Part shown: one piece after another, positions 4,629 through 22,791 of the stretch
Layout of the letters: every line of letters starts with the position of its first letter
How positions within the stretch are numbered: the stretch's first letter is position 1
Source: Nitrospirota bacterium
Lineage (GTDB): Bacteria > Nitrospirota > Thermodesulfovibrionia > Thermodesulfovibrionales > UBA9159
Reading direction: 5' to 3'
Length of the DNA stretch: 38,840 nt
Assembly (NCBI GenBank): GCA_023475105.1
Contig: JAMCWJ010000096.1
Span: 1-38,840 of the forward strand
The notes under the pieces: generated by a model
What the model was told of the DNA's origin: nothing
What the model saw: the letters and a program-made list of their open reading frames with translations, nothing else
Databases searched by the model: none
Program-made: the position numbers and the translations under genes

Positions 4629-4665
4629 CTTTCTTTCCTCGCTGCGCGTAGCGCGTTACGGTTTT

Positions 4666-5592
4666 TCATGCCGCCTCTATCAACGTGACGAAGACATCTT
4701 CCAGGGACGGCATGATCCTTTCGATCCTGAACACGTGTATCTGCGATTCCTCAATGGCCTTCCTAATCGTGGGGATCGCATGCTCGGCGCTGATGACCGT
4801 GGCGTGGATAAGACTGCCGAAGAGCGCTGTCTCTATCCCTTGTCGATGCAGCACCTCCATTGCTTCCACCGGCCTCCCGGCCTCGATTTCGAGCACATCC
4901 CTTGGCATGTGTTTTTGTTTCATCTCGAGAGGTGTGCCTTCGGCAATGACCCTTCCCCGGTAGATTAGGGCGAGCCTATCGCAGTACTCCGCCTCGTCCA
5001 TATAATGAGTTGTTACGAAGATCGTCGTTCCGGACCGCGACATGCCGTAGATGAGATCCCAGAAATTCCGTCGCGATACAGGGTCCACACCTGAAGTAGG
5101 CTCATCGAGAAAGATAATCGGCGGCTCATGGAGAATGGCGCACCCGAGGGCTAGCCTTTGCTTGAAGCCACCTGGGAGCGTTTTTGTGACGGCCCTCCTC
5201 CGGTCTTGAAGGCCCGCCATCTCAAGCACCCATTCCTCCCTTTTTTTCTTCCTGCTGTTTGAGACGCCGTAGATACCGCTGAAGAACTCTATATTTTCCC
5301 CTACCGTGAGATCGTCATACAGAGAAAACTTCTGCGACATGTAGCCTATGGTCTTCTTGATCTCTTCTGATTCTTTCATGATGTCGTATCCGCCGACCGA
5401 ACCCTCCCCGCCCGCGGGCAGAAGGAGGCCGCAGAGCATCTTGATTGTGGTGGACTTACCCGCACCGTTCGGTCCCAGAAACCCGAAGATCTCGCCCTTT
5501 TTCACGCTGAGATCGATCATGTCAACAGCGGTGAAATCGCCAAAGCGCTTCGTCAACCCCCGGACCTTCACCGCGATGGTGCTTCTGTTCAT
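4666..5592 (-). CDS. ABC transporter ATP-binding protein
   Basis: Walker A GPNGAGKSTT, ABC signature LPGGFKQRL, Walker B IIFLDEPTSGVD. Confidence 0.9.
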   Translation of the reverse strand: MNRSTIAVKVRGLTKRFGDFTAVDMIDLSVKKGEIFGFLGPNGAGKSTTIKMLCGLLLPAGGEGSVGGYDIMKESEEIKKTIGYMSQKFSLYDDLTVGENIEFFSGIYGVSNSRKKKREEWVLEMAGLQDRRRAVTKTLPGGFKQRLALGCAILHEPPIIFLDEPTSGVDPVSRRNFWDLIYGMSRSGTTIFVTTHYMDEAEYCDRLALIYRGRVIAEGTPLEMKQKHMPRDVLEIEAGRPVEAMEVLHRQGIETALFGSLIHATVISAEHAIPTIRKAIEESQIHVFRIERIMPSLEDVFVTLIEAA

Positions 5593-6512
5593 CTTCCCTC
5601 CACCTGCGACAGGAAGATATCTTCTATCGATGGCGTGATCTCTCTCAGGCTGCTGATCTTAATGCCAGAATCTCCAAGACGCTCGACAACCCGTCGGGAA
5701 ATGTCCGGGGATTCAAGCGTCGCATGGAGCCTGTCTCCGTAGAGATTCACGCTCCTCACCCCGTCCACGCCCCTCACGGCTTCCAGCGCGGCCCGCGAAT
5801 CTTCGACCCACACCTCGATCATCGGATATCCAAGAGAGTTCTTTACTATCGCAGGGCTGTCCTCAATGAGGATTCTTCCCTTGTGGATAAGTCCGATCCT
5901 TCCGCACCTCTCTGCCTCATCAAGATATGCCGTCGAGACAAATATGGTCACCTCCTCTTTCAGGAGATCATAGAGGATCCTCCAGAAGTCCCTCCTCGAC
6001 ACAGGGTCGACCCCGTTCGTCGGCTCATCGAGGAAAAGCACTTCAGGGGTGTGGATCAGAGCGCAGGCAAGTCCGAGCTTCTGCTTCATACCGCCGGAAA
6101 GCTTTCCTGCGAGCCTGTCTTTGAAAGGTGTCAGGTTGCTGAAGCCAAGGAGCCTTTCGATCCTCTGCGGCCTCTCACTTTGCGGCACCTCATAGAGATC
6201 TGCATAAAAGAAAATGTTTTCCATTACCGTGAGATCCTCGTAAAGGCCGAACCTCTGGGACATGTAACCGATTTTTTCCTTAATCCTCTCCCCCTCTTGT
6301 GCAATAGAATGGCCCGCTACCCAGGCCTTGCCCGATGTCGGCCCCATGACGGCAGTGAGAAGCCTCATAATTGTCGTTTTTCCTGCACCGTCCGGACCGA
6401 CAAGCCCGAACAACTCACCTTTTTCAATCTCAAGGTTCAGGTTGTCAACAGCAATGTTGTCACCGAAAGACTTGGTCAGGTTTAACATCCTTATTGCTAT
6501 CGCTTTATTCAT
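5589..6512 (-). CDS. ABC transporter ATP-binding protein
   Basis: Walker A GPDGAGKTT, signature LSGGMKQKL, Walker B VLFLDEPTNGVD. 4-nt overlaps with both neighbouring genes indicate translational coupling. Confidence 0.9.
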   Translation of the reverse strand: MNKAIAIRMLNLTKSFGDNIAVDNLNLEIEKGELFGLVGPDGAGKTTIMRLLTAVMGPTSGKAWVAGHSIAQEGERIKEKIGYMSQRFGLYEDLTVMENIFFYADLYEVPQSERPQRIERLLGFSNLTPFKDRLAGKLSGGMKQKLGLACALIHTPEVLFLDEPTNGVDPVSRRDFWRILYDLLKEEVTIFVSTAYLDEAERCGRIGLIHKGRILIEDSPAIVKNSLGYPMIEVWVEDSRAALEAVRGVDGVRSVNLYGDRLHATLESPDISRRVVERLGDSGIKISSLREITPSIEDIFLSQVEGR

Positions 6513-7492
6513 CGCAATAGTATCCTCACATCAGCAGGCATGCTCGGTTTCAGTTCGTCATTGACATTCTTCGCGCTCACCTTCACGCCAAAGACGAGTT
6601 TAACCCGCTCCTCCTGTGTCTGGACATTCTTTGGAGTAAACTCTGCTTCCGATGATATAAAGGTAACTGTGCCCTCATATTCTTTCCCCGGATAGGAATC
6701 AGTTTTGATCTCAGCCTTCTGCCCAAGTTTCACAAGACCGAGCTTATCCTCCTTCACATACACCTTTACCCAGGGGTTTTCAAGGTCGCCTATGGTGTAA
6801 ACAGGCATACCCGATGCCACTGTTTCACCAAGTTCGCTATTTTTCCTCAATATTACACCCGGGACCGGCGCATATATCACCGTGTCTTTCAATCTCTCTC
6901 CGGATGTAGTCAACGCTGCCTTTGCCTGCCGGACACGCTGCTCTGCAGCCTTTATCTCCTCTATTCTTGGCCCCTCTTTCACAAGACTCAACTTCTCTAA
7001 GGCGTTCTTCCGCTGTGACGCAGTGGTATCATATGCTTTGCTTGCAGCATCAAACTGGGAAGCCGGGATTGCACCGTTTCTATAAAGCATCTCGGCCCTC
7101 TCGTAATCCTTCTTTGCCTTGTTCAGTTCCGCCTCTGCCTGGCTCACATTCGCCCGTGCCTGCTCAATCTCCTGGGGTCTCGAACCGACCCTGAGTTCTT
7201 CAAGTCTTGCCCTGGTCTCATTCAGATATGCCCTGTTTTGTGCAACAATGCTTTCAAGTTCAGCGCTATCAAGGACGGCAAGCCTGTCGCCCTTTCCAAC
7301 CTTCTGGCCTTCTTCCGCCAAAAGCTCCACCACTCTTCCCGGGAGCTTGAATCCCATATTCACCTCTGTAACTTCCACATTCCCTGAGACGGCAAGGATT
7401 CCAGGCTCCTCCTGATTGCCAAAGCGATGTATCAGAAACGCGGATACAACTATTAAAAAGAGAATTCCAACAAGCAATAATTTCTTCTTCAT
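6509..7492 (-). CDS. HlyD-family membrane fusion (periplasmic adaptor) protein, YbhG-like
   Basis: N-terminal TM anchor, long coiled-coil region, then a beta-barrel/lipoyl-like C-terminus. GGAGG RBS upstream of the ATG at 7492. Sits between the TolC-like and ABC genes. Confidence 0.85.
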   Translation of the reverse strand: MKKKLLLVGILFLIVVSAFLIHRFGNQEEPGILAVSGNVEVTEVNMGFKLPGRVVELLAEEGQKVGKGDRLAVLDSAELESIVAQNRAYLNETRARLEELRVGSRPQEIEQARANVSQAEAELNKAKKDYERAEMLYRNGAIPASQFDAASKAYDTTASQRKNALEKLSLVKEGPRIEEIKAAEQRVRQAKAALTTSGERLKDTVIYAPVPGVILRKNSELGETVASGMPVYTIGDLENPWVKVYVKEDKLGLVKLGQKAEIKTDSYPGKEYEGTVTFISSEAEFTPKNVQTQEERVKLVFGVKVSAKNVNDELKPSMPADVRILLR

Positions 7493-8811
7493 TGAGATAC
7501 CTCCTCTTTGTATATGTCCTCACCAATTGCTCTCCTTAAGGATGCAACAGCGATATGCTTATCGAAATTTGCCTGATAAAAGTCGGCTTCGGCCCTGAGG
7601 AGTGCTGTCTGGGCATCGATTACGTCGGCGCTTGTACCTGCACCTGTTTCGTACTTCAAAAGCTCTATCCGGAGGTTTTCCTTCGCGGTTTCAATCGCTT
7701 TTCCAGAGACGTCAATCCTCTCCCCCGCGTTTTCGATGTTCAGATATGCATCCCTTATTTCCCGAAGTATCTCAAGTCGCAAAGTCCGTTCCTCTTCTTT
7801 AACCTTTTCAGCCTCCTTTCTTGCCCGGTTCACTTCCGCCTTTATGCTTCCCCCGTCAAAGATGGGAAGAGACAATCTCAGTGCAAGATTCCAGTTCTCC
7901 TTCAATGTAACACTCTCTCCAGAGCTCTCAGAGTATCCACCGCTCAGATAAACGTGGGGAAGCCGCTTCCCTTGCACAAGTCTTATCTGCTCCTCAGCCA
8001 ATCTCTGATTCTTCAGGACCGCCTGATAATCGGGCCTCTGAGAAAGGGCCCTTGCGGTACTTTCCTCGGGAGAATACCTGAAGACCAACGGCTCTTCGCC
8101 GACAACGGAGATCTTCCTCGTCTGGTCCTCAATACCCATGAGCGTCTTGAGGACTTCATATGCGCTTTCGAGATTATTCCTGGTAAGCAGGGCATTCTGC
8201 CTTGCATGGGCAAGTTCGGTCTCTGTTTTTAATAGCTCCACCTTCGGTACTGTCCCCGCCTGAAGGAAGAGTTCCACATTCTTCCTGTGCGCCTCCAGCT
8301 GCTTCACGGATGCCTCGTTTGCTTCAAGGAGTCTGTCGAGCTGTCCGATTTTATAGAAGACGCTCGTTACGTTGTAAATGAGTTCCTGCCTGCTCACCTG
8401 AAACGTATCCTCTGCTATGCGTTTCTTAATCTCTGCAATCGCAACACCTCTGTCGAGACGGCCACCCCTGTATAAAGGAAGAAAGAAGGAGACACCCATG
8501 TCATATATGGTGTTGTCGAACTCGGGGAATGCCGCACCTGCAAGAGGATTACCCGAGATAGGAGTAACCGGAGCAGGATAGCGGTATCTTGTTATCCCGC
8601 TGCTGAAATCAACCCTCGGCAGCCTTTCGGCCTTTGCCCTGTCGATTCCATAGGTTTCGATTTCCACATCCTTGCCTGATGCGGCAAGTCTCGGATTGTT
8701 CTTCAAAGCAAAATCAACTGCCTCTGATAAGGCGTAGGGAACCGCATCAGCATCGGCAAGGGCTGCATCGGGCAGCAGAATCAGGCACATGATGACAAGC
8801 AGTTTTTTCAT
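7489..8811 (-). CDS. TolC-family outer-membrane efflux protein
   Basis: Signal peptide (MKKLLVIMCLILLPDAALA). Two repeated helical/beta halves typical of outer-membrane factors. GGAGGAGG RBS upstream of the ATG at 8811. Confidence 0.85.
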   Translation of the reverse strand: MKKLLVIMCLILLPDAALADADAVPYALSEAVDFALKNNPRLAASGKDVEIETYGIDRAKAERLPRVDFSSGITRYRYPAPVTPISGNPLAGAAFPEFDNTIYDMGVSFFLPLYRGGRLDRGVAIAEIKKRIAEDTFQVSRQELIYNVTSVFYKIGQLDRLLEANEASVKQLEAHRKNVELFLQAGTVPKVELLKTETELAHARQNALLTRNNLESAYEVLKTLMGIEDQTRKISVVGEEPLVFRYSPEESTARALSQRPDYQAVLKNQRLAEEQIRLVQGKRLPHVYLSGGYSESSGESVTLKENWNLALRLSLPIFDGGSIKAEVNRARKEAEKVKEEERTLRLEILREIRDAYLNIENAGERIDVSGKAIETAKENLRIELLKYETGAGTSADVIDAQTALLRAEADFYQANFDKHIAVASLRRAIGEDIYKEEVSQ

Positions 8812-8862
8812 AAAATCCTCCTCCTAAGCAAATCTTGACTTACATAGGAAAAACAAAAAAAT

Positions 8863-9474
8863 TTAGGTTGCGACGCATGTTCTAAAATTTTCCCATAATT
8901 TCATCCCCTCATCCACAAGAGGAAATGAAAAACCGCTAAGAGACCACCTCATCGCAGTGACCTGTACCATCCCGATGAGCATCAATGCAGCAGCTTTTGG
9001 ATTGAGGTCTCTTTTGATCACGCCTCCTTTCTGACCTTCACTTACGACGGACTCCAGCCGTGCAGCATAGGCGCCAATGGCGTTGAGCAGTGTTCTCTTG
9101 AGCTCTTCGTTTCCTGCATGAATTTCTTCAGAAAACACGAGCCTCGGGATTCCACCATTTCTCTCTATGTAGTCAAGGTGCAGCATAAAAGCCTTTCTCA
9201 GCTTTACCAGGGGAGAATCGGCAACGCCGGTGTTCGAAACGTTTTCGAGGTTTCTCAGGAGCTCCTCTCCGATTTTTTCTACTGTTGCGGAAAGGATTTC
9301 TTCTTTGCTTCCGAAATGCCTGTAAAGGTTCGCCTCCGAAATTCCGATCTCTCGCGCGAGTGCGGCAGTGGTAAGACCGCTCATCCCTTTAGCGCTGAGG
9401 ATCTTCATTGTGGCCTGAACAATTTGCCCACGCCTCGTATCCCTGCTCATTTTCACAGCTCTGTCCCTGTCCAA
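8863..9474 (-). CDS. TetR/AcrR-family transcriptional regulator
   Basis: N-terminal HTH (TTAALAREIGISEANLYRHFGSKEEIL) typical of TetR. It is the first gene of the minus-strand efflux operon. Confidence 0.85.
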   Translation of the reverse strand: MDRDRAVKMSRDTRRGQIVQATMKILSAKGMSGLTTAALAREIGISEANLYRHFGSKEEILSATVEKIGEELLRNLENVSNTGVADSPLVKLRKAFMLHLDYIERNGGIPRLVFSEEIHAGNEELKRTLLNAIGAYAARLESVVSEGQKGGVIKRDLNPKAAALMLIGMVQVTAMRWSLSGFSFPLVDEGMKLWENFRTCVAT

Positions 9475-9690: not shown

Positions 9691-10701
9691 ATGAGATTCG
9701 ATGAGAGAGGTACCGTTGTGAGGAGAACGTACGCAGAGGAAGCGCTGACCGACACGGGAGCGTTGGTGGTCTCCGCGCGCCTCCTCCCCTATCGGCGGTT
9801 TGCGCAGGCGGCGTTTATCCTGCTCATACTCCTGATGCCCGTGTTGAATATCCTGCGCTATGATTCCGCTTCAAGGGAGCTGATCCTGTTCGGCCAGGTC
9901 TGGAGTCTCGGGCTGAAGCAGGGCTTTTATGCGGACCATACCGTATCCGGCGCGGGGTATATCGCCGTTCATTTTTTCCTCAGGGCGATACTCCCCTGGG
10001 TCCTCGTCCTTTCGGTCTTCCCGCTCCTGGGGTTTCTCACCGGAAGACTCTTCTGTGGCTGGCTCTGCCCCGAAGGGGCCCTGTTCGAGTGGGCTGATTA
10101 CCTCACCCTGAAGCTTCTCGGAAGAAGAAGCCTCTTCAGGAGGAAAGCGAACGACCCCGGCGAAATGAAAGGCAACCCTGTCTTCTACGGGACCCTCGCG
10201 GTTCTCAGTATCGTGCTCATTCCTCTGTGCGGCGGCATAGCCCTCACCGGATATTTCGTTGCACCGGAGACGATCTGGAACCAGCTCATCCATGGAAGCT
10301 TTACCCCAGGAGTAAGAGCGGGAATCATCGGAGTCTCGATCTACATGCTTACAGGTTCGGTCTTCGTGAGACACACGTTCTGCAAATTCGTCTGCGCCGC
10401 AGGACTGATGCAGACGCTTTTCGGCTGGGTCAGCCCGGTCTCGCTGAGGCTGCGCATGGGCTTTGAAAGGATCGGGGAGTGTACGGACTGCAGGGCCTGC
10501 GAGAAGGCATGCTTCATGAATGTCCTTCCAAGGAAGAACAAGCGGGACATCTCCTGCGTGAACTGCGGCGCCTGCATCGACGCCTGCAACAAGGAACTCG
10601 GGGGGAGAGGCCTTTTCCATTATTCGGCTGGTGAATACAGTCGCGGGGCGCCTGCCGAAAAATGCGGGCGCCCCGCGGTGAAGACGCTTTACGGCGGCTA
10701 G
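9691..10701 (+). CDS. polyferredoxin-type 4Fe-4S membrane protein (NapH/MauN/CcoG-like)
   Basis: Several TM helices. CGWLCPEG motif. Two C-terminal ferredoxin motifs, CTDCRACEKAC and CVNCGACIDAC. The start is ambiguous among ATGs at 9691 and 9701 and a nearby GTG. Confidence 0.7.
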   Translation: MRFDERGTVVRRTYAEEALTDTGALVVSARLLPYRRFAQAAFILLILLMPVLNILRYDSASRELILFGQVWSLGLKQGFYADHTVSGAGYIAVHFFLRAILPWVLVLSVFPLLGFLTGRLFCGWLCPEGALFEWADYLTLKLLGRRSLFRRKANDPGEMKGNPVFYGTLAVLSIVLIPLCGGIALTGYFVAPETIWNQLIHGSFTPGVRAGIIGVSIYMLTGSVFVRHTFCKFVCAAGLMQTLFGWVSPVSLRLRMGFERIGECTDCRACEKACFMNVLPRKNKRDISCVNCGACIDACNKELGGRGLFHYSAGEYSRGAPAEKCGRPAVKTLYGG

Positions 10702-11795
10702 ATGGCCTTGATCCTCCTCAGCGCGCCGACGAAGTTATCGACGAGCAGGGGGTTGAAGTCCCTTGCCGTCGCCTCTTTCATGAGCTGCACTACCTTCGGA
10801 CTTTCGAGCGCCCTCCGGTAAGGCCTTTCGGTCCTCAGGGCATCAAAGAAGTCTGCAATAGCCACTATCTGGCTTATGATGTGCTGGTGATTTCTCCGGC
10901 GCTTTGTCTCAGGGTATCCGCTCCCATCAAATTTCATATGGTGCTCGAAAGCCGCGATCAGGGCGAGTTTCGGAACGTCTGAAAGGGTAGCAAGGTACCG
11001 CGCACCGAAGACGGGATGGGTCTTGATGGCGTTCCACTCCTCCAGATCCAGTTTTGTTACCTTCTCCAGGACCTCCTTTGAGACAAACAGCTTCCCCACA
11101 TCATGAAGAAGCCCGGCAAGGCCGACATCATGAAGATTCTCGCCTTTCATGCCCAGGGCTTCTGCCTGAAATATGGCAAGCACCGAGACGTTTGTGGCAT
11201 GGACATAGGTGTATTCACTGTAAGATTTCATCGGGCTGACGACGCGAAGAACATTAGTCTCCTTCTTCAGGGTCGTGATGAAGCCGGTAACCGCATCTTC
11301 CAGGCTCACTATGTCCAGTCTTCTAAATTTGGCAATCCCTTGGCAGAGCCCTTTGACCTTTGCGATATTCTCGTTTATCAAGGCGCTCACATCGGTCCCT
11401 GCCGAGTTGAACCTCACCTCCACCATGCCGACGGACAGGTGAGGGCTGGATACAACCTTTTCGGTGGAAGCAACACCGGCGATAAACTTCTTAAATTCCT
11501 CAATGCCGAGCCCCTTCTTTAGGACGATCTTTTCTATCCCTTTCCTCTTAAGTCTCCTTTTAAGACTGCTTATGTGGGTGCCCTTATCGGTGACGGGGCT
11601 GTTATTGAAGACCAGGCTGTCTCCCAGGAGGGTAAGGGTCAAGGTATCGTCAGAATAGAGTTCTTCCGCCACTCTCAGGGCATTTCCAGAGAACTCGCCT
11701 ACGAGGGGGTGCTGCTCAGAATATAATGAACAGTTCGAAAGGGCAGTCATTAAATGGGAAATAAGTTCAGTTACCTTCCCTTGAGACATTGTCAT
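10698..11795 (-). CDS. HD-GYP domain c-di-GMP phosphodiesterase with ~170-aa uncharacterised N-terminal domain (copy 1)
   Basis: HD motif LLHDVGK and the HHMKFDGSGYP (HD-GYP) signature. Converges on the 4Fe-4S gene with stop codons overlapping by 3 nt. Confidence 0.85.
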   Translation of the reverse strand: MTMSQGKVTELISHLMTALSNCSLYSEQHPLVGEFSGNALRVAEELYSDDTLTLTLLGDSLVFNNSPVTDKGTHISSLKRRLKRKGIEKIVLKKGLGIEEFKKFIAGVASTEKVVSSPHLSVGMVEVRFNSAGTDVSALINENIAKVKGLCQGIAKFRRLDIVSLEDAVTGFITTLKKETNVLRVVSPMKSYSEYTYVHATNVSVLAIFQAEALGMKGENLHDVGLAGLLHDVGKLFVSKEVLEKVTKLDLEEWNAIKTHPVFGARYLATLSDVPKLALIAAFEHHMKFDGSGYPETKRRRNHQHIISQIVAIADFFDALRTERPYRRALESPKVVQLMKEATARDFNPLLVDNFVGALRRIKAI

Positions 11796-13974
11796 TCCCT
11801 TTCTGTTTCAGGTTGAGAAGTCTTTCGCTTATTGCTCTGAATCTCTTCAGTTTCTCGCTTATTGTCCTGATCTCATTGTTCTTCGAGGTCAACCCCTTCT
11901 CAAGCAGGGGCTTCACCGCGGAATGAGGGTAGTTGGCGAGGCTCCTGAAGATCTCGGTCTTGAGTTCTTCCATGTCCGATTTATTAAGCATGGTCTTTGA
12001 CTGATAGAGCCTTGTCAGCGCCTCCGCCGCCCTGGGGTCTCCGATATCTCCCAACGCCTTCACTACGGGGATTTTGTAACGCCACTCCCTGCCGAAGAGA
12101 TCCTTCTTTTCGAGGATTTCGAGGAGATAGGGCACCGCCTCCTTGACCCGATGCGCACCTGCCAGTCTCACCACCTGATCCCGCAATGCCAGGTCCTTTG
12201 ACTGCAGGTAAAGTCTGATATATGAAAAGGTTCCGGGGACGTTGAAATGAAGAAGCGTTTTAACCGCCTCGATACTTATCCCTTTCTCCGCGTGTTTTGC
12301 AAGGGCTTCGATGCGGTCGACATAATTCACGCCGCCGCATTCTCTGATGAGATAGATCATATTCCGCACCACATACCACCGGTCGTCATTGAGCCTCCGC
12401 ACCGCGTCAGGGAGGATATCGTTCCTGAATCCCGCGAGTACCGAAAGAAGAAATTTCCTTATCGAGGGGTCTTTCTCCTCAGCAAGGGCGTCAAAGAGAG
12501 GATCGGTGAGATACCGTTTTAGCAGGCCTGCGAGTTTTGTCACCCCTTCCCTTTCAAACCTTCCCCAGAGCTTAAAGGCATCGACCATTTTTGCTATGGA
12601 GTCTTTCGAATAGAAGTAGGACTCGAGCATGCCGGATGCCTGCTCCCGGTATTTTCCGGCAAGGCTGTGGGAGTAAAGGGTGTTGTAGATGTCCGATATC
12701 TCCTCGAATCTCCCGGTCTCCAGAAAATCGCTGCCGAGTTCGGAGAGTTTTGAGAGCAGTGCAAGATAGTCATCCCTGCCTGTCCTATCCGAGTCGAGCA
12801 GTTCGAGCATAATACCGGATGCAACCCTGTCCACTGTTTCATCCCTGCACTCGATTGCCACCTCTTCAAGGATCGGCGACTTCTTCACTTCGAAGCCCCT
12901 GAGCATTCTTTCGATCTCTGCCTGGTATTTGTCCGTAACGAAGGTCTCGAATTGATCTTCGCTAAAAAGTCCCATAATGTGCTCGTCGATCTCCAGATCG
13001 TCCACAAGCCCCTTCTTGTCGACGATAAGGTCAAAAAAGCCCCGCCCTTTTTTTGCGGTGTTTAGCTTATCGATGAGATTCCGCAGACTGTCGGGGATGA
13101 GGGAAGAATGCTCGGCGAAGACGGTCATCATCTTCTCGATGTCGGCCCGCGTGAGCTCTCCGAACAGCCGCGCAGCCTCTCCGGCATCGATGGAGGGGCC
13201 GCTGAATGCCCTCTTAAGGAACTGCTGCTTGATCGTCGGACTGAGATTCTGAACCATCGAGATGAACCGGGTGAAGAGATCCCTGTTGATTCCTGAATCC
13301 TCTTTTTTTCTGAGGTAGGTAGTAATCACCCTGTCGTACGTCACCTCAGGCGTGTCCTGGGCCATCTGACGGTTGATTAAATCGGCGATATCCTCGGGGG
13401 CCACACTGAGGAGCACTCCCTCCGCATCTCCCTCCGCAAGTCTTCCCTCAAGAAGACCGTACACGTAATCTTCCCAGATTTTGGTCTCATCGCCATCCTG
13501 CCGAAGGGAGTCCTCGACAAAGCCGAACTTCGAAATGTCCAGAGCGGTCAGCACAACGTGTTTGAGGCCTTTTTCCTGCGTAAGCTCCGCGAGGGTCTTG
13601 CCCGTGGGCATGTCCTTCGCCGTAATCAGCTCATGCAGTCCGAGAAGCTCCTCCACCCCTAGCCCCGAATAAAAGGTGATGGCCGCGATTCCCCTGTTGT
13701 GAACACTGAGCGCAAATTCCTTAAATACAGGGTTTTTCCTGTCCAGAGTATATTCATCTACTACAAGGGTATCCTTCGCGATGCCGATGGTGATGCTGCT
13801 TCTGAGTTCAAAGAGTTTCTTGAGGAACTCGAAGGCTTTTTCTATGGATTCTCTGGTTATAGGATGTTCCGGGGGATAAAGGCTGACACTTCTCCTCGAG
13901 ATATTGAGCTCGATGACCGCATCGGAAAGAAGCTTGGCGTCGATCGGGAGCTTCTCACTTCTCTTCTCTTCCAT
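11767..13974 (-). CDS. 735-aa protein with uncharacterised N-terminal region and C-terminal HEAT/PBS-lyase-like repeats (copy 1, intact)
   Basis: Repeats of the AVPYLLEILEKKD...VVKALGDIGDPRAAEAL type in the last ~250 aa. Overlaps the HD-GYP gene start by 29 nt. No GGDEF or EAL motifs. Confidence 0.7.
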   Translation of the reverse strand: MEEKRSEKLPIDAKLLSDAVIELNISRRSVSLYPPEHPITRESIEKAFEFLKKLFELRSSITIGIAKDTLVVDEYTLDRKNPVFKEFALSVHNRGIAAITFYSGLGVEELLGLHELITAKDMPTGKTLAELTQEKGLKHVVLTALDISKFGFVEDSLRQDGDETKIWEDYVYGLLEGRLAEGDAEGVLLSVAPEDIADLINRQMAQDTPEVTYDRVITTYLRKKEDSGINRDLFTRFISMVQNLSPTIKQQFLKRAFSGPSIDAGEAARLFGELTRADIEKMMTVFAEHSSLIPDSLRNLIDKLNTAKKGRGFFDLIVDKKGLVDDLEIDEHIMGLFSEDQFETFVTDKYQAEIERMLRGFEVKKSPILEEVAIECRDETVDRVASGIMLELLDSDRTGRDDYLALLSKLSELGSDFLETGRFEEISDIYNTLYSHSLAGKYREQASGMLESYFYSKDSIAKMVDAFKLWGRFEREGVTKLAGLLKRYLTDPLFDALAEEKDPSIRKFLLSVLAGFRNDILPDAVRRLNDDRWYVVRNMIYLIRECGGVNYVDRIEALAKHAEKGISIEAVKTLLHFNVPGTFSYIRLYLQSKDLALRDQVVRLAGAHRVKEAVPYLLEILEKKDLFGREWRYKIPVVKALGDIGDPRAAEALTRLYQSKTMLNKSDMEELKTEIFRSLANYPHSAVKPLLEKGLTSKNNEIRTISEKLKRFRAISERLLNLKQKGNDNVSREGN

Positions 13975-14184
13975 CTTTGTTCGTCCCCATCAGACTGAGC
14001 AACTGTCCCCGGACTCCTCTATAATACTACTAATAGCGGAATCTTTAAAGAATCTTTTTTGTCGCGTGATAATTCGACCGGAGGCCCAGCAGGAGCCGGG
14101 CTGAGGTTCCGGGGATTCCCGGCAGGGGGTGGAGATGCGACCGGAAGACTTCTATTTCACAGGTGTGAGGATTCTTTACGGCGG

Positions 14185-15309
14185 TTAGATAGCCTTGATC
14201 CTCTTCAGCGCGCCGACGAAGTTATCGACGAGCAGGGGGTTGAAGTCCCTTCCCGCCGCCGCTTTCATAAACTCGACTGTCGGGCCGATGTCGAGGGCCC
14301 TCCGGTAAGACCTCTCTGTCCTCAGTGCGTCGAAAAAGTCGGCTATTGCGACCATCTGGCTCGCGATATGCTGTCTCTTCCCCCGCCTCTTCGTATCGGG
14401 ATACCCGTTTCCGTTGAATTTCATGTGGTGTTCGAAGGCGGCGATGACCGAAAGTTTCGGCGCGTCCGGGAGTGTTGCAAGATATCGTGCTCCAAGTACC
14501 GGATGCCGCTTTATGGCGTCCCATTCGGTCTCGCTGAGCTTTTCCGTCTTTTCAAGCACCCCTTTCGGTACGAACAACTTCCCCACGTCGTGGAGCAGAG
14601 CTGCAAGACCGAGGTCGTGAAGACTTTCTCCCTGTATCCCCAGGGCCTCTGCCTGGAACATGGTGAGCACCGAAACATTCGTGGCATGCACATAGGTATA
14701 CCCGCTGTAAGACTTCACCGGACTGATTATCCGGAGCACGTTCATCTCCCTTTTCAATGTCGAGATGAATCCCGCCACGGCATCCTCGAGGCTCACCACC
14801 TCCAGTCTTCTGAACTTGGCGACCCCCTGGTAGATCTCCCTGACCTTCGTGATATTTTCGTTTACGAGATCGCTGATATCGACTCCCTCGGCCTTGAATT
14901 TCACCTCGACCATACCCACCGAAACATGTGGGGAGGAGAGCACCCTCTCCCCCGAGACGGCGCGGGCTATGAACTGTTTCAGCTCTTCGAGATCCACCCC
15001 TTTCCGTATCACGATTTTCTCTATCCCTTTCTTCCTCATCCTTTTTTTGAAACTGTCGATATGCGTGCCGGTTTCCTTCACCGGGTTGTCATTTGCGACA
15101 AGACTGTCCCCGAGGAGGGTGAGACTTATCAGGTTGTCGCTGTAGAACCCTTCCATCAGCTCGAGGGCCTTTTGAGCAAACGCGTCGACCAGGGGGTGTC
15201 TCTCCGAGTAGAGGGAACAGTTCGAAAGGGAGGTCACGAGGTGAGAGATGAGTTCAGTTGGGTCCTTCGCGGTCATGGCCCTCTCCTTTGTTCCTGAGGA
15301 ATTTTTCAC
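14185..15309 (-). CDS. HD-GYP domain phosphodiesterase (copy 2, paralog of 10698..11795)
   Basis: About 70% aa identity to copy 1 by eye. HHMKFNGNGYP and LLHDVGK motifs are conserved. The last ~65 nt of the 3' end are near-identical to copy 1. Confidence 0.85.
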   Translation of the reverse strand: MKNSSGTKERAMTAKDPTELISHLVTSLSNCSLYSERHPLVDAFAQKALELMEGFYSDNLISLTLLGDSLVANDNPVKETGTHIDSFKKRMRKKGIEKIVIRKGVDLEELKQFIARAVSGERVLSSPHVSVGMVEVKFKAEGVDISDLVNENITKVREIYQGVAKFRRLEVVSLEDAVAGFISTLKREMNVLRIISPVKSYSGYTYVHATNVSVLTMFQAEALGIQGESLHDLGLAALLHDVGKLFVPKGVLEKTEKLSETEWDAIKRHPVLGARYLATLPDAPKLSVIAAFEHHMKFNGNGYPDTKRRGKRQHIASQMVAIADFFDALRTERSYRRALDIGPTVEFMKAAAGRDFNPLLVDNFVGALKRIKAI

Positions 15310-17424
15310 TCATCGTCCGTATCTCTTTGTCCCGTGAAGTGAGCCCGCGTTCAAGAAGGGGCCTCACAGAGGCCGGCGGATACTGGGAGAGGCTCTTCAG
15401 GATCTCGCCCCTTATCTCCTCCATCCTGCTTCGGTAAAGCAGGCTCCTGGCGCGGCATAGCCTCATGAGCGCATCCAGCGCCCTGGGGTCTCCTATCTCT
15501 CCGAGCGCCCTCACCACGGAAAGCTTGTAATGAAGTTCGATGCCGAAAAGGTCCTTCCGTTCGAGTATTTCGAGAAGGTAAGGGACCGCCTCCCTCACCT
15601 TGTACGCACCCGCAAGCCGTATTATTTGGTCCCGTAACTCGAGGTCTTTGGACTGAAGGAAGAACCTGACGTAGGGAAAAGCCCCGGGGATACCGAAGTG
15701 CAGGAGGGTCTTCGTCGCTTCGACGCTTATCCTCTTGTCCGGATGTTTCGCCAGCGGCTTGACACGGCCGACGTGCTGTATGCCTCCGCACTCCCTGATA
15801 AGGTATATCATGTTTCTCACCACATACCACCGGGCATCGTTCAGTCTTCTCGCCGCCTCCGGGACTATGTCGGTCCTGAAGGCGGCCAGCACGGAAAGGA
15901 AGAACTTCCTTGTCGAAGGATCGGCCTCTCCCGCAAGGGCGTCCAGCAGGGGGTCGGTCAGAGAGCGCTTCAGAACCCGTGCGATACGCATTACCCCTTC
16001 CCTGTTAAGTCTTCCCCAGAGCTTGAACGCCTCGACGAGCTTCGCAAGTGAACGCCTCCGAAGTGAAGGAATACTGGATCATCGCTGCAGCCTCTTCCCT
16101 GAACCTCCCGTTGAGGGCCTCCGAGTAAAGGGCGTTGTAAATCTCGGTGATCTCCTCGAATCTACCGGTCACGAGAAATTCCAACGAGACCTGCAAGCTT
16201 CGTGAGGAGCGCAAGGTACCCTTCCCTGTCCGTGGAGTCAGAGCCGATGAGTTCGATCAGCACCTCGGCGGTCACGCGGTCGATCGTCTCATCCCGGCAC
16301 TCGGCCTTCACTTCCTCCGGCACACGCGACCTCCGGCTGTCGAAGCCTCTCAGCATCCGCTCGAGCTCCTCCTGATATCGCTCTGCAACGAAGCTCTTGA
16401 ATCCGTCCTCGGTGAAAAGCCCCAATATCTCCTCGTCGATCTCGAGGTCGTCCACAACGCCTTTCTCTTCCGCGAGCAGATCGAAGAATCCGTTTCCCCT
16501 CTTGGAAGCTGTCAGCTTATCGATGGTGTTCCTCAGGCTCTCGGGAATGAAGGAGGAGTGCTCGGTGAAAATCCTCATCACCTTCTCTATATCGGACTGC
16601 ATCAGCCCGTTGAATAGCTCTTCGGCCTCCTTCGTGTCGATCTGCGGATAACTGAATGACCTCCTCAGAAACTGCTCCTTGAGCTTCGGATTGAGGTCCT
16701 CAACCATCGAGATAAACCGTGTGAAGAGCTCCCGGTTGAAGCCCGAGTTCTCTTTCCTTCTCAGGTAGCCCGTGATCACTCTGTCGTAAGTCTTTTCCGG
16801 AGCGTTTTCGGGTATCTGTTCGTTGAGGAAGGAGGCAATGTTCCCCGGGGGCAAGGCGAGGAGCACCCCCTCGGCCTCCGAATCGGCGAGCTTCCCCTCG
16901 AGCAGTCCGTACACATAATCTTCCCATATCGCGCCTTCGGGGCCGGTCTCTCTCAGGGAATCCTCTACGAAACCGAACTTCGAAATATCGATGGGGATGA
17001 GGCCCAGGTGCGTGAGACCGTCCTTTCCTGCTCGTTCGGCCAGGGCCTTCCCCACAGGGGCCTCCTTCGAGGTGATCAGCTTCTGCAGACCGACGAGTTC
17101 GTCCCTTTCAAGCCCCGTATAAAAAGTGATCGCCGCGATTCCCTTGCGGTGTATGCTGAGGGCGAATTCCCTGTAGACGGGGTTCTTCCTCTCGAGGGTA
17201 TATTCGTCGATCACGAGCGTGTCTTTTGCAACGCCGATCGTGATGCTGCTCCTCAGTTCGAAGAGCTTCCGGAGGAACTGAAAGGCCTTATCGATCGACT
17301 CCCGGGCGATGGGATGTTCCGGGGGATAGAGGCCGACACTCCGCCTCGAAATGTTGAGCTCGATGACCGCATCGGAAAGAAGCTTGGCGTCGATCGGAAG
17401 CTTCCCGCTTCTCTTCTCTTCCAC
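15254..17424 (-). pseudogene. HEAT-repeat protein gene, copy 2, disrupted by two frameshifts (ORF fragments 16162..17424, 16005..16214, 15254..15991)
   Basis: The three ORF fragments are collinear with the copy-1 protein (N-terminal 420 aa, middle 69 aa, C-terminal 245 aa). Frames shift near ~16200 and ~16060-16080. The aligned segment between the conserved CTTCCCCAGAG and GAGTAAAG anchors is 120 nt here (~16008..16127) versus 119 nt in copy 1 (~12559..12677), a net 1-nt indel. Confidence 0.6.
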
Positions 17425-17445
17425 TAATTGTTCGTCCCCCTCAGA

Positions 17446-17476
17446 CTTGAGCAGCTGTCCCCGGACTCCTATATAA
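17446..17476 (+). promoter_or_regulatory. putative sigma70-type promoter for the Clp1-like gene (TTGAGC - 17 nt - TATATAAT)
   Basis: Hexamers read by eye. The sequence is conserved in the duplicated copy at ~14000-14030. Confidence 0.3.
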
Positions 17477-17581
17477 TACTACTAATAGCGAAGTCTTTAA
17501 AGAATCTTTTTTTGTCGTTGGAGTAATTCGACCCGTGGCCCTGCAGGAGCGGCTGACGGTCCCCGGGATTCCCGGCAGGAG

Positions 17582-18472
17582 GTGGAGATGCGACCGGAGG
17601 ACTTCATAACGGACAGGGAGGTCCTCGAAGAATTGGTCGGGCCCCGGAACAGGCTCATAATGGTCCTGGGGGCCTCCGACACGGGGAAAACGGCCCTTGT
17701 TGCAACGCTCGCGGCGTTTCTTTCCGAGCTCGCACCGGCCGCGGTCGTGGATCTGGACATGGGACAGTCCCATATAGGACCTCCGGCAACGATCGCCTGG
17801 GGCAGGATCGACCGGGGGGGCGCGGAGTGGTCGGCTGTCGCTGTCGAAGACTTCTATTTCACGGGAAGCACCACGCCCTTCGGGAATCTTCTGCCGGCTG
17901 TTACCGGCTCAAAGCTCATGACGGACAAGGCCCTTTTCTCGTGCCGGAAGGTTCTGGTCGACACCACGGGGCTCGTTGCGGAACCGGCGGGACGGGCGTT
18001 GAAGCACTTCAAGATCGATCTCCTGGGTCCGGACATCATCCTCGCTCTTGAACATTCAGGCGAGTTGAGCCATATCCTCGACCCCTTCAGGCCGGCGAAA
18101 CACCCTAAGGTATACAGGCTCCTCGCGCCGAAGGGGGCGCGGGCGAAGACATCGGCCGGAAGGAGTCTCTACCGGTTCGAAAAGATGGAGCGTTATTTTG
18201 CGGATTCAGAGGTCCGCGCTGTTCCGATCGATGATGTCGGGATGCGATTCACAAAGGGACCGGCGCCCCCCGGAGCCCTGAAGCACAGGATCGTCTCCTT
18301 CAGGGACGAGGAGAACAGGGACATCGCCCTCGGCCTCGTCGAGGGGGTGAAGGAGGAGGAAGGTCTTCTCCTCATACGCACCCCTTTGGGAGAAGGGAGA
18401 CGCTTCTGCACCCTGGTGGTCGGAAAAACCGAAATGGACAGGGCGAACTCCCTGTTGACCGATGTGCGCTGA
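17582..18472 (+). CDS. Clp1-family P-loop protein (polynucleotide 5'-kinase-like)
   Basis: IMVLGASDTGKTALVATL matches the Clp1 P-loop VMVVGPTDVGKSTLCRLL. VDLDMGQSHIGPPAT matches VELDVGQGSVSIPGT. FYFTGSTTPFGN matches YHFGSTTPGTN. VDTTGLVAEPAGRAL matches NTCGWVKGSGYQAL. The true start may be the second ATG at 17588, which has better AGGAGG spacing. Confidence 0.7.
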   Translation: MEMRPEDFITDREVLEELVGPRNRLIMVLGASDTGKTALVATLAAFLSELAPAAVVDLDMGQSHIGPPATIAWGRIDRGGAEWSAVAVEDFYFTGSTTPFGNLLPAVTGSKLMTDKALFSCRKVLVDTTGLVAEPAGRALKHFKIDLLGPDIILALEHSGELSHILDPFRPAKHPKVYRLLAPKGARAKTSAGRSLYRFEKMERYFADSEVRAVPIDDVGMRFTKGPAPPGALKHRIVSFRDEENRDIALGLVEGVKEEEGLLLIRTPLGEGRRFCTLVVGKTEMDRANSLLTDVR

Positions 18473-21645: not shown

Positions 21646-22791
21646 ATGACGCAATTCATGGAAGTCGTCGAGTGGTTCGACAAAACAGGCCAGGAAGTTG
21701 TGCACCGCTATCCCGAAGAGGGCTCCGGAGAGATAAAGTTCGGCGCGCAGGTTGTAGTAAGAGAAAACCAGGCGGCGGTTTTCTTCAGGGACGGAAAGGG
21801 GATGGACGTCCTCGGACCGGGAAGGCATACCCTCTCGACACAGAACCTGCCGATCCTGACCAAGGTCCTCTCGCTGCCCTGGGGGTTCAAGAGCCCGTTC
21901 AGATGCGAGATCTATTTCGTCAATCTGAAGGTCTTTACCAACATGCGATGGGGGACAAAGGACCCCGTCGCCTTCAAAGACGAGCAATTCGGTCTTATCC
22001 GTCTGAGGGCCTTCGGCACCTTCACCATGCAGGTGACGCAGCCCCTCCTCTTTCTCAATACCCTTGTCGGGACTCAGGGAAGCTTCGAGACGGCGAACGT
22101 CGAAGACTATCTGAGGGAGATCATCGTGTCGAGACTGAACGACTTCCTCGGAGAGGCCGTCGACACGCTCGTCAATCTTCCGAAATACTATGACGAGATG
22201 GCGGTGGCGGTGAAGACGCGCCTCATGGAGGACTTCAGAAAATACGGGATGGAGATGAACGATTTTTACATCAACCGGATCACCCCTCCCGAGGAAGTTC
22301 AGAAAATGATAGACGAACGCTCGGGGATGGCGGCTGTCGGTGATCTCGACAGCTTCCTGAAGTATAAGGCGGCAAAGGCGATGGGCGATGCGGCGGTCTC
22401 CGGGGGAGAGGGTACAGGGGGGGGCGCGGCCGCGGGCATGGGCCTCGGCATCGGCGCGGGCATGGGCATGATGATTCCCGGAATGCTCTTTAAGGTCCTC
22501 GGAAACGGTCAGATCACCCCGGAGAAGATCGCGGAAAAGGGGCTTGTGAATTGCCCTGCGTGCCACGGCGACGTGCCGCTCAGCAGCCGGTTCTGTCCCC
22601 ACTGCGGCCACCAGCTTGTCGTGATCGCGAAATGTCCCCGGTGCAGCAAAGACCTCGCGGTTGGAGACAGATTCTGTCCTTCCTGCGGACTTGATCTCAG
22701 CGCCGAACTCCGCTGCGGCAAATGCAGCGCCAAACTCCCGCCGGGCACAAGGTTTTGCTTTAATTGCGGGGAAAAGGCATCGGGAGAATGA
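21646..22791 (+). CDS. SPFH/band-7 family protein of the YdjI-like ('virion core protein-like') type with three C-terminal zinc ribbons
   Basis: N-terminal EVVEWFD...AAVFFRDG...RAFGTFTMQV resembles Bacillus YdjI-type SPFH proteins as recalled. Gly/Met-rich linker. Three CxxC-x(9-12)-CxxC ribbons: CPACHGD..CPHCGH, CPRCSKD..CPSCG, CGKCSAK..CFNCG. Confidence 0.6.
   Translation: MTQFMEVVEWFDKTGQEVVHRYPEEGSGEIKFGAQVVVRENQAAVFFRDGKGMDVLGPGRHTLSTQNLPILTKVLSLPWGFKSPFRCEIYFVNLKVFTNMRWGTKDPVAFKDEQFGLIRLRAFGTFTMQVTQPLLFLNTLVGTQGSFETANVEDYLREIIVSRLNDFLGEAVDTLVNLPKYYDEMAVAVKTRLMEDFRKYGMEMNDFYINRITPPEEVQKMIDERSGMAAVGDLDSFLKYKAAKAMGDAAVSGGEGTGGGAAAGMGLGIGAGMGMMIPGMLFKVLGNGQITPEKIAEKGLVNCPACHGDVPLSSRFCPHCGHQLVVIAKCPRCSKDLAVGDRFCPSCGLDLSAELRCGKCSAKLPPGTRFCFNCGEKASGE

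Follow-up and report, generated by a model that had tools for sequence, protein, structure and literature searches.

A conserved two-gene unit encoding a predicted HD-GYP phosphodiesterase and a HEAT-repeat protein with a common N-terminal domain in Nitrospirota and Desulfobacterota

The window, the whole 38,840-nucleotide stretch of Nitrospirota DNA analysed here, contains what its sequence identifies as a tandemly duplicated two-gene operon, comprising a gene for a large HEAT-repeat protein, here called BIG, followed by a gene for an HD-GYP protein (Table 1). Both proteins carry homologous N-terminal domains of a type that appears previously undescribed in current domain databases. The pair, kept across two phyla, is apparently unreported, and the unit is probably a two-subunit signalling enzyme not previously studied. 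In the reading preferred here, to which a probability of roughly 45% is given, BIG would serve as a scaffold or regulatory subunit with no catalytic role of its own and bind its phosphodiesterase partner by way of the shared domain, forming a heteromeric enzyme in which BIG would regulate cyclic-dinucleotide hydrolysis. The observed basis comprises the gene structure, the domains, the homology of the N-terminal domains, the strict co-occurrence, the gene overlap and the catalytic metal ligands.

Table 1. Features of the duplicated operon and its surroundings (window coordinates)
Feature	Position	Strand	Remarks
NapH-like Fe-S gene	9691..10701	+	Pfam Fer4_5, Fer4_18
HD-GYP copy 1, 363 aa	10698..11789	-	Predicted phosphodiesterase, operon 1 gene 2
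HD-GYP1 N-terminal domain, aa 1-121	11427..11789	-	Motif C-x-L-Y-S-x-x-H-P; AF2 model
BIG copy 1	11767..13974	-	Intact 735-aa HEAT-repeat partner protein, operon 1 gene 1; Pfam HEAT_2 3.8e-17
BIG1 HEAT/ARM-type alpha-solenoid, aa 370-728	11791..12867	-	
BIG1 middle region, aa 146-369	12868..13539	-	Helical, low AF2 confidence
BIG1 N-terminal domain, aa 10-145	13540..13947	-	Homologue of the HD-GYP N-terminal domain
Operon 1 upstream region	13975..14152	-	Promoter-like site and relic of Clp1-like gene
HD-GYP copy 2, intact, 363 aa	14185..15276	-	Paralog of copy 1
BIG copy 2, two frameshifts	15254..17424	-	ORFs and DNA alignment with copy 1
Operon 2 upstream region	17425..17605	-	Promoter-like site like that of operon 1

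The HD-GYP reading frames as called span 10698-11795 and 14185-15309, both on the minus strand, and comparison with orthologs places the likely starts at 11789 and 15276, giving 363 residues each. With these starts, the BIG stop and the HD-GYP start overlap by 23 nt in both copies; an earlier sequence-only reading of this DNA had described the frames as overlapping, which is borne out. The two HD-GYP paralogs it recognised display 69% identity, and copy-to-copy DNA comparison shows both genes to have been duplicated in one piece with their promoter. BIG copy 1 is identical to the NCBI entry 'HEAT repeat domain-containing protein [Nitrospirae bacterium]', and HD-GYP copy 2 is annotated at NCBI as a 363-aa HD domain protein of the same contig (P0139).

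Aligned with copy 1 at the DNA level (69% identity, three gaps), BIG copy 2 has lost 2 nt near 16181 and gained 1 nt near 16048, and comprises (i) a 420-aa N-terminal ORF (16162-17424), (ii) a middle piece of 44 codons in a third frame, and (iii) a 245-aa C-terminal ORF (15254-15991; HEAT_2, 3.3e-20), which would give 723 aa if repaired. The frameshifts reflect either decay to a pseudogene or faulty assembly. The sequence-only reading placed a 735-aa protein beside each HD-GYP gene and held that the pair had been retained after duplication; the first claim is right for copy 1 but not for copy 2, and retention is imperfect in the window because BIG2 carries two frameshifts, which had gone unnoticed, both HD-GYP copies and BIG1 being intact. 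Since HD-GYP2 is intact beside the broken BIG2, the HD-GYP protein may manage without its cognate BIG or use BIG1.

Over its first ~120 residues BIG shows homology to the domain with which the partner HD-GYP protein begins (hhalign probability 95.8%, E 8.3e-9, 111 columns; BLASTP E 1e-5). The two domains align end to end, with invariant L-Y-x-x-x-H, G, G and E, and the order of secondary structure elements is identical in the AF2 models of both proteins (alpha-alpha-beta-beta-alpha-beta-alpha-beta as predicted in the HD-GYP model). Among the HD-GYP versions L22, Y23, H27 and P28 are invariant and a Cys is near-invariant, whereas the BIG version displays an invariant L-Y-P-x-x-H-P loop adjoined by an invariant arginine pair, R27 and R28, absent from the HD-GYP version. 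Searches of Pfam, NCBIfam and PDB return no match to the domain, structure searches with the HD-GYP protein align the catalytic part alone to known structures, and within ~0.9 Mb of related loci the domain is confined to BIG and HD-GYP proteins. The observation that both HD-GYP paralogs start with the same region of no known family therefore stands, Pfam and NCBIfam being blank. The occurrence of this domain in BIG as well, the most informative feature of the locus, had been overlooked.

BIG proteins (720-790 aa) are soluble and non-catalytic; a novel alpha/beta domain at the N-terminus is followed by a helical, flexible stretch and then by the HEAT solenoid. The N-terminal domain is the best-conserved part, with 33 of the 79 invariant columns located within the first 104 residues. 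The middle region of BIG1, ~220 aa long with AF2 pLDDT values mostly of 40-65, contains short conserved motifs (WEDYxYGLLEG, TYDRVIT.YL, IPESLRN and VDDxExDE) and shows neither a Pfam match nor significant similarity to the HD-GYP catalytic domain. The solenoid, confidently modelled by AF2 from about residue 370, is formed by tandem HEAT repeats, as in HEAT_2 and HEAT_PBS proteins, and matches only scaffold and adaptor proteins; conserved-column analysis of this region reveals no conserved His/Glu/Cys clusters. The Pfam scan of BIG detects no GGDEF, EAL, kinase or DNA-binding domain, in agreement with the sequence-only reading, and no known c-di-GMP-binding domain (PilZ, degenerate GGDEF/EAL, MshEN). 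The C-terminal HEAT repeats reported earlier are found by Pfam HEAT_2 in both BIG1 and the BIG2 fragment. The N-terminus of the ~480-aa uncharacterised region said to precede them indeed matches no characterised family (Pfam, NCBIfam, PDB), but the region resolves into the ~135-aa shared domain, the ~220-aa helical middle region and part of the solenoid, which already begins near residue 370.

The HD-GYP proteins are predicted HD-GYP domain phosphodiesterases of the class II c-di-GMP phosphodiesterase family. Both copies score above the Pfam thresholds for HD_5 and HD and preserve the signature HD..H..HHxxxDGxGYP..D; in copy 1, linker helices (aa 134-176) follow the N-terminal domain. The seven core metal ligands align to H189, H221/D222, H250, H276/H277 and D305 of PmGH, with the third-metal Glu (PmGH E185) offset by one position in the alignment, and H197, H229, D230, H258, H283, H284, D313, G291, Y292 and P293 are invariant in 46 orthologs. 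Family membership suggests c-di-GMP as the substrate, which is that of most characterised HD-GYP enzymes (preprint 10.1101/2021.11.05.467447). According to the same preprint, the KPG and RxxK motifs of PmGH contact Gua2 and Gua1, respectively, and changes at these positions can move specificity towards cGAMP. Unlike in PmGH, both are altered in the window clade, where the K of KPG is kept and P-G is replaced by V-T or T-E, and RxxK reads RxxR with both Arg conserved, rendering the substrate uncertain; distant family members retain the canonical KPG.

Among species-level genomes, all 68 informative loci (68 of 68) have an HD-GYP ortholog directly downstream of BIG in the same orientation, which is far beyond chance; the other 5 of the 73 loci in total sit at contig ends or hold a deletion relic and were set aside from this count. 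The pair recurs in four additional, distant loci (Geobacteraceae, Syntrophobacteraceae and two other lineages), so that the pairing spans two phyla, Nitrospirota and Desulfobacterota, and is kept down to ~31% BIG identity. Measured from the BIG stop, the HD-GYP start lies at a median of -8 nt and at most 53 nt away, with overlap in 42 of 63 loci. In one locus (L073) both genes have been lost together, leaving a 46-aa BIG relic, and in the Geobacteraceae loci the pair is followed by a gene for a GGDEF cyclase. Sequence clusters at 50% identity that match the N-terminal and middle regions specific to BIG number at least 272 (E ≤ 1e-30). Pairwise identities of BIG and HD-GYP correlate across 61 loci (r = 0.97), a value that any two neighbouring genes under vertical inheritance should show. 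The core proposal of the sequence-only reading, an uncharacterised, functionally coupled module of HD-GYP and HEAT-repeat proteins, holds: every informative relative and each distant locus keeps the two genes paired, and the N-terminus of BIG matches no characterised family.

ORF clustering over all loci discloses no conserved neighbour besides the pair itself. The NapH-like Fe-S gene does converge on copy 1 with ends overlapping by 4 nt, as described previously, but it adjoins the pair in only 4 close relatives and a homolog occurs anywhere in only 5 of 73 loci; it thus reflects local synteny only, and the suggested redox-linked input is unsupported.

Comparison with known HD-GYP proteins highlights a common layout, in which PmGH (PDB 4MCW), Bd1817 (PDB 3TM8) and DvhD (PDB 9RC0) likewise display an N-terminal accessory domain, a helical linker and the HD-GYP domain; the length is also similar (363 aa versus 369 aa in PmGH). 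The accessory domain, however, is not GAF, DUF3391, REC or PAS according to Pfam, unlike those of PmGH, Bd1817, RpfG and DvhD. Assignment to the PmGH (GAF-HD-GYP) or RpfG (REC-HD-GYP) families was discarded given that neither the full proteins nor the isolated N-termini give a GAF or Response_reg hit and the sequence match to 4mcw begins only at residue 180, and assignment to the Bd1817 family (DUF3391-HD-GYP) given that the four beta-strands followed by two long helices of PF11871 differ from the predicted order of the window domain (10.1101/2021.11.05.467447). No dedicated HEAT-repeat partner sharing the N-terminal domain is known for PmGH, Bd1817 or DvhD. A passage of PMC12943098 (ref. 99) describes the output of RpfG from Xanthomonas as dependent on interactions with GGDEF and PilZ proteins, and as described there RpfG offers a precedent for HD-GYP proteins acting in complexes. 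Its partners are nevertheless signalling-domain proteins encoded elsewhere and devoid of a shared N-terminal domain, whereas BIG is a co-translated HEAT-repeat protein; moreover, control of RpfG works through a phosphorylated REC domain, which the window HD-GYP proteins lack. BIG itself matches E. coli YibA, cyanobacterial CpcE/F, NblB and the PP2A A subunit in sequence at the repeat level only, its N-terminal 370 residues having no counterpart in any of them. A phycobilin lyase or NblB-type identity is rejected (NblB model, 15.1 bits versus a cut-off of 300, E 0.012), and no bilin- or phycobiliprotein-related gene is present among the Pfam-scanned genes of the window, which derives from a Nitrospirota MAG. 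The proposed assembly of BIG and HD-GYP would resemble PP2A architecturally, in which a catalytic subunit is held by a HEAT-repeat scaffold.

In the preferred, subunit reading, BIG and HD-GYP would be produced together by translational coupling and assemble into a heteromeric enzyme; the N-terminal domain of BIG would pair with its HD-GYP homologue as a pseudo-homodimer, and the solenoid and flexible middle region would form a scaffold or regulatory arm that may gate, localise or direct to a target the hydrolysis of c-di-GMP or a related cyclic dinucleotide. The physical interaction, the interface between N-terminal domains, the direction of regulation and the substrate are all what we infer. 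The weak spots of this reading are the broken BIG2 beside an intact HD-GYP2 and the poorly modelled middle region; as a counterpoint, the N-terminal domain could be a sensor used independently by both proteins. A stronger version, possible though doubtful, envisages an obligate heteromeric cyclic-dinucleotide phosphodiesterase of Nitrospirota and Desulfobacterota, a bacterial counterpart of PP2A in which the HEAT scaffold docks via the L-Y-x-x-x-H-P domain, this domain serving as both interface and sensor that sets second-messenger turnover. It is unlikely, although the same operon evidence of pairing and overlap fits, that BIG is instead a cyclic-dinucleotide receptor or effector forming no stable complex, with HD-GYP setting the local ligand pool and the shared domain sensing a common input. 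Arginine pairs are typical of c-di-GMP binding sites, and R27 and R28 beside the loop of BIG, together with the cyclase gene of the Geobacteraceae loci, are consistent with such a receptor. The N-terminal domain is also placed like the sensor domains of other HD-GYP proteins (10.1101/2021.11.05.467447). BIG, however, displays no evident output domain and none of the ligand-binding domains named above, and the gene overlap suggests stoichiometric co-production, more typical of subunits.

A further possibility concerns the substrate only and is compatible with either the subunit or the receptor reading: another nucleotide signal, such as 3'3'-cGAMP or pGpG, would place the module in a different second-messenger circuit. 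The family is present in Geobacteraceae, known to use cGAMP, and the second-best PDB sequence match of the HD-GYP protein is the cGAMP-specific HD-GYP enzyme V-cGAP3 (5z7c, 7e-25). Together with the altered contact motifs these observations lend the idea some weight, but the K of KPG and both Arg are conserved, distant members keep KPG and c-di-GMP is the usual substrate of the class, and the idea is unlikely. That BIG is a maturation or stability factor, loading or protecting the Fe/Mn centre rather than regulating signalling, appears improbable: HD-GYP enzymes require a di- or tri-nuclear Fe/Mn centre but are active elsewhere without such a helper (10.1101/2021.11.05.467447), and strict co-occurrence and co-translation would suit a dedicated helper, and the conserved Tyr/His loop of both N-terminal domains and the near-invariant Cys of HD-GYP could bind metal, yet the HEAT region lacks conserved His/Glu/Cys clusters and 735 aa is large for a metallochaperone. 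That the two genes are neighbours through inherited synteny alone, unconnected in function, is very unlikely; most loci belong to a single phylum, within which gene order can be passed on unchanged, but the pair survives to low BIG identity and in a second phylum while other neighbours change, and the genes overlap, share a private domain, and have been lost together and duplicated together.

Of the c-di-GMP phosphodiesterase classes, HD-GYP proteins are the less well understood, most of them lacking a known mode of regulation. The present analysis defines a large family in which the enzyme always has one dedicated, co-translated HEAT-repeat partner, with a shared domain absent from domain databases; at minimum, the N-terminal domain common to both proteins and the middle region of BIG could each be defined as a new domain family. 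If the complex exists, it would represent a new control of second-messenger degradation, by a non-catalytic paralogous domain on a scaffold, and a handle on c-di-GMP signalling in poorly studied, environmentally important anaerobes (Thermodesulfovibrionia, Geobacteraceae, Syntrophobacteraceae).

A known anti-phage defence system was also considered and rejected, PADLOC returning nothing beyond weak HEAT and HD matches of a generic kind (E 8e-6 to 4e-3); the locus shows synteny and vertical inheritance. Control by a c-di-GMP riboswitch is likewise rejected, with no Rfam match, GEMM-I/II included, at gathering score in the window, none in 13900-14250 even at E up to 1, and no unusual fold of the leader (z-score -0.54). 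The upstream regions of the two operons are ~88% identical and carry the same sigma-70-like site, TTTAAA-17-TATTAT, at 14049..14021 in operon 1 and at 17501..17473 in operon 2. The operon 2 region overlaps the start of a divergent Clp1-like gene (17582, plus strand), of which the operon 1 region holds a 24-nt relic of the 5' end.

The two tandem units on the minus strand of the window (10698-17605) each comprise a gene for a large HEAT-repeat partner protein, hereafter BIG (copies BIG1 and BIG2), followed by a gene for a predicted HD-GYP phosphodiesterase (HD-GYP1 and HD-GYP2), with the BIG1 and HD-GYP1 genes overlapping by 23 nt. Scanning a single genome from each species disclosed 73 loci with BIG relatives of 31-80 % identity, nearly all labelled Nitrospirota or Thermodesulfovibrionia, and an HD-GYP ortholog lies directly downstream of BIG, on the same strand, in 68 of them; among the remaining five, four stop at a contig edge and one is a deletion relic. 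The pairing, for which the sequence-only reading had proposed a gene-neighbourhood check, is conserved essentially without exception. The relic, from a Thermodesulfovibrionales metagenome-assembled genome (MAG; L073, 5964-6141), lacks the pair between an Obg gene and a zinc-ribbon gene and preserves only 46 codons of the BIG N-terminus, 52 % identical to the query; both genes were therefore lost together. Between the BIG stop and the HD-GYP start, the median distance is -8 nt and the maximum 53 nt; the two genes overlap in 42 of the 63 loci measured, and clustering of all ORFs in these loci reveals no further conserved neighbour.

Coordinates of the features discussed (window positions, or residues of BIG)
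Feature	Position	Strand	Description
BIG1	11767-13974	minus	735-aa ORF, unit 1, followed by the HD-GYP gene
HD-GYP1	ORF 10698-11795	minus	likely start ATG at 11789, because orthologs are nearly all 363 aa
HD-GYP2	14185-15276	minus	intact, 363 aa, 69 % identical to HD-GYP1
BIG2 frameshift sites	16040-16190	minus	2-nt deletion near 16181 and 1-nt insertion near 16048
Upstream regions of BIG1/BIG2	13975-14152, 17425-17605	minus	about 180 nt, 88-90 % identical
NapH-like gene	9691-10701	plus	polyferredoxin membrane protein (Fer4_5, Fer4_18)
Efflux operon	2413-9474	minus	complete; unrelated to the BIG/HD-GYP finding
515-aa ORF	22836-24383	plus	without Pfam match; adjoins the DUF6866 protein gene
DUF6866 protein gene	24569-25630	plus	adjoins the 515-aa ORF
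BIG N-terminal alpha/beta domain	residues 10-145		AF2, moderate confidence
BIG helical middle region	residues 147-365		AF2, low confidence
BIG alpha-solenoid	residues 370-728		AF2, very confident

The family extends further: a HMMER profile of BIG residues 1-370 retrieves 760 cluster representatives at E ≤ 1e-10, of which 272 reach E ≤ 1e-30, the best 150 of 2019 matches being nearly all 700-790 aa long or fragments, and the low-scoring members including proteins labelled Geobacteraceae and Syntrophobacteraceae. In four of these distant loci, an HD/HD_5 gene directly follows BIG and its product carries the same N-terminal domain. In two Geobacteraceae loci (L074, 3517-4374; L075, 3739-4596), a 285-aa membrane-anchored GGDEF cyclase is encoded about 60 nt downstream of the pair, making a three-gene unit of scaffold, phosphodiesterase and cyclase possible in Geobacteraceae; the cyclase N-terminus is membrane-anchored and does not contain the domain common to the pair. 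A single long-read MAG (CAVTHB01) harbours two BIG/HD-GYP pairs, each on a contig of its own (L060 and L063), a second case of the pair present in two copies as a unit; the ORFs there are broken up by the frameshifts that long-read assemblies typically contain.

The sequence-only reading had described the N-terminal regions of both proteins as uncharacterised, which stands, and missed that, by sequence comparison, BIG and its HD-GYP partner have homologous N-terminal domains. BLASTP aligns the two across 95 residues (E 1e-5) and profile-profile comparison across 111 columns (95.8 % probability, E 8e-9); the domains of both families can be aligned end to end, sharing an invariant L-Y-x-x-x-H motif, two Gly and one Glu, and both AF2 models display the same order of two helices, a beta-hairpin, and helix-strand-helix-strand. 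Judged by eye from the models, the topology gives a STAS-like impression, with a beta-beta-alpha-beta-alpha-beta core behind two helices. The domain matches zero models in Pfam and NCBIfam, even at E up to 10, which dismisses DUF3391, GAF, REC and PAS as candidates, the first three being those that precede HD-GYP in described families according to the catalogue of Galperin and Chou (10.1101/2021.11.05.467447). A profile search of PDB sequences returns only a designed beta/alpha protein and no natural sequence, and whole-chain fold searches give alignments confined to the catalytic or HEAT parts, none to this domain. Within about 0.9 Mb of related loci the domain is confined to BIG and HD-GYP proteins, and no part of BIG is more strongly conserved: 33 of its 79 invariant columns fall within the first 104 residues.

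In its AF2 model (overall pLDDT 75), BIG comprises three parts, and its only Pfam matches are HEAT_2 at the C-terminus and HEAT_PBS at a borderline score. By its fold it belongs to the HEAT-repeat proteins, without being an equivalog of either the bilin lyases or NblB. The possibility that its middle region is a decayed HD-GYP domain, making BIG a pseudo-enzyme paralog of its partner, is not supported: hhalign of BIG 147-372 against HD-GYP 122-363 scores 16.0 with a probability of 0.3 %, the reversed profile scores 15.6, and six of 30 column shuffles reach at least 16.

The partner is, by its predicted fold, ligands and motif, a member of the HD-GYP family. Both HD-GYP1 and HD-GYP2 lie far above the Pfam thresholds for HD_5 and HD and align to the solved GAF-HD-GYP enzyme PmGH (4mcw) at E 1.4e-25, with every core metal ligand and the HHxxxDGxGYP signature present; these residues are invariant in 46 orthologs, and the enzyme is very probably active. 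It falls outside the RpfG, PmGH and Bd1817 architectural families because the N-terminal domains that define them, each of which was searched for, are absent. The public annotation of HD-GYP1 (P0121) is 324 aa long and starts about 40 codons too late, thereby truncating the conserved N-terminal domain; the orthologs and HD-GYP2 are 363 aa long.

The second unit is damaged. The BIG1 and BIG2 genes are 69 % identical in a DNA alignment that places both indels in copy 2, where the reading is broken into a 420-aa N-terminal ORF, 44 codons in the third frame and a 245-aa C-terminal ORF; once repaired, BIG2 would have 723 aa, the usual ortholog length. The deletion and the insertion do not compensate each other and neither site carries a homopolymer run. 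Since the amino-acid sequence is kept across all three frames, the damage either arose recently, which would make BIG2 a very recent pseudogene, or reflects an error of assembly. The earlier claim of a 735-aa partner for each HD-GYP gene is thus limited to copy 1, BIG2 being interrupted.

The closest relative (84 % BIG identity) has only one pair, flanked by an ABC transporter and the NapH-like gene, and other close relatives display the order Clp1-like gene, BIG, HD-GYP, NapH-like gene. The window keeps the flanks of its relatives with two pairs between them, which indicates a tandem duplication in place, specific to its lineage. The nearest orthologs of copy 1 share 83-84 % identity with it, whereas copy 2 is about 67-71 % identical to everything, copy 1 included, and would have either evolved faster or be older.

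Taken together, the evidence points to BIG and the HD-GYP protein forming a dedicated two-protein unit, because (i) they strictly co-occur while all other neighbours change, (ii) their genes overlap and are translationally coupled, (iii) they are lost jointly and duplicated jointly, (iv) they have in common a domain found only there among the related loci, and (v) BIG has no catalytic domain and possesses a large protein-binding solenoid. Mere synteny is barely credible as an explanation of the adjacency. The pairwise identities of BIG and HD-GYP correlate at r = 0.97 (61 loci), which fits inheritance as a unit, yet is expected for any adjacent genes. With the gene-level facts established, we infer that the two proteins would assemble as a heteromeric phosphodiesterase, and give this reading, covering interaction, interface and effect, a probability of roughly 0.45. 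In this arrangement, the homologous N-terminal domains of BIG and of the HD-GYP subunit would pair with each other, replacing or accompanying the homodimer contacts that HD-GYP enzymes usually make. Gating, localisation or targeting of the enzyme would fall to the HEAT solenoid together with the flexible middle region.

The intact HD-GYP2 beside a frameshifted BIG2 counts against an obligate partnership, although BIG1 serving both enzymes, or frameshifts that are errors, may account for it. Alternatively, BIG could serve as a nucleotide receptor or effector that the co-expressed enzyme tunes, a real if unlikely contender, or as a maturation factor for the metal centre, which seems quite improbable. 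Independently of these alternatives, the substrate of the putative heteromeric phosphodiesterase would be c-di-GMP, or for example cGAMP, a substrate other than c-di-GMP being rather unlikely; of the nucleotide-contact motifs described for PmGH, KPG and RxxK (preprint 10.1101/2021.11.05.467447), the first reads K-V-T or K-T-E and the second RxxR in the window clade, and KPG is retained in more distant family members.

Existing names for these proteins are only 'HEAT repeat domain-containing protein', 'hypothetical protein' and 'HD domain-containing protein', and full-text literature searches returned no paper that connects HD-GYP enzymes to a HEAT-repeat partner and none treating HD-GYP proteins of Nitrospirota. 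In the pair, an enzyme of known class would thus occur in a two-subunit arrangement that is widely conserved and undescribed, the shared domain also being undescribed. The finding is solid and testable, the function is what we infer, and the hosts are mostly uncultured.

The upstream regions of BIG1 and BIG2 are far more similar to each other (88-90 %) than the coding DNA of the two units (69 %) and contain the same TTTAAA-17-TATTAT promoter-like site, that of unit 1 also bearing 24 nt left over from the 5' end of the Clp1-like gene; neither is conserved in any related locus compared. A riboswitch or structured leader is rejected by the absence of an Rfam match, an ordinary fold (z -0.54) and the lack of conservation of the region in related loci; a recent gene-conversion event, or selection acting on a promoter or operator specific to this genome, is more plausible. 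The Clp1-like gene itself (17582-18472, plus strand) encodes a 296-aa bacterial protein matching the eukaryotic/archaeal CLP1 P-loop (polynucleotide kinase-type) domain PF16575 at 1.7e-24, and adjoins the pair divergently in the window and in six close relatives (L001, L002, L003, L005, L008, L035).

The redox-linked input hinted at from the convergent NapH-like gene finds no support. The gene is real and does converge on HD-GYP1, ending 4 nt inside the end of the latter, but its homologs adjoin the pair in only four of the 73 scan loci and in L079, all close relatives (L001, L002, L005, L072, L079), and are absent from the conserved core of the neighbourhood, which reduces the arrangement to local synteny and excludes the gene from the module. 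In L079 it adjoins genes matching the CopD/Cyt-b5, COX1 and FixO/cytochrome c families, because of which it probably belongs to a respiratory oxidase cluster.

The remaining contig genes encode an efflux system, cytochromes, histidine biosynthesis, histidine kinases and other unrelated functions, with no GGDEF, EAL or PilZ domain among the window ORFs scanned; an anti-phage defence system was rejected, PADLOC returning no specific match. The efflux operon comprises a TetR regulator, an outer-membrane factor, a HlyD-type adaptor, two ABC ATPases and two ABC-2 permeases. In addition, the 515-aa ORF and the DUF6866 gene lie downstream of a gene for an SPFH/double-zinc-ribbon protein (21646-22791), and the homologous block in L079 adjoins a protein matching Pfam NspV.
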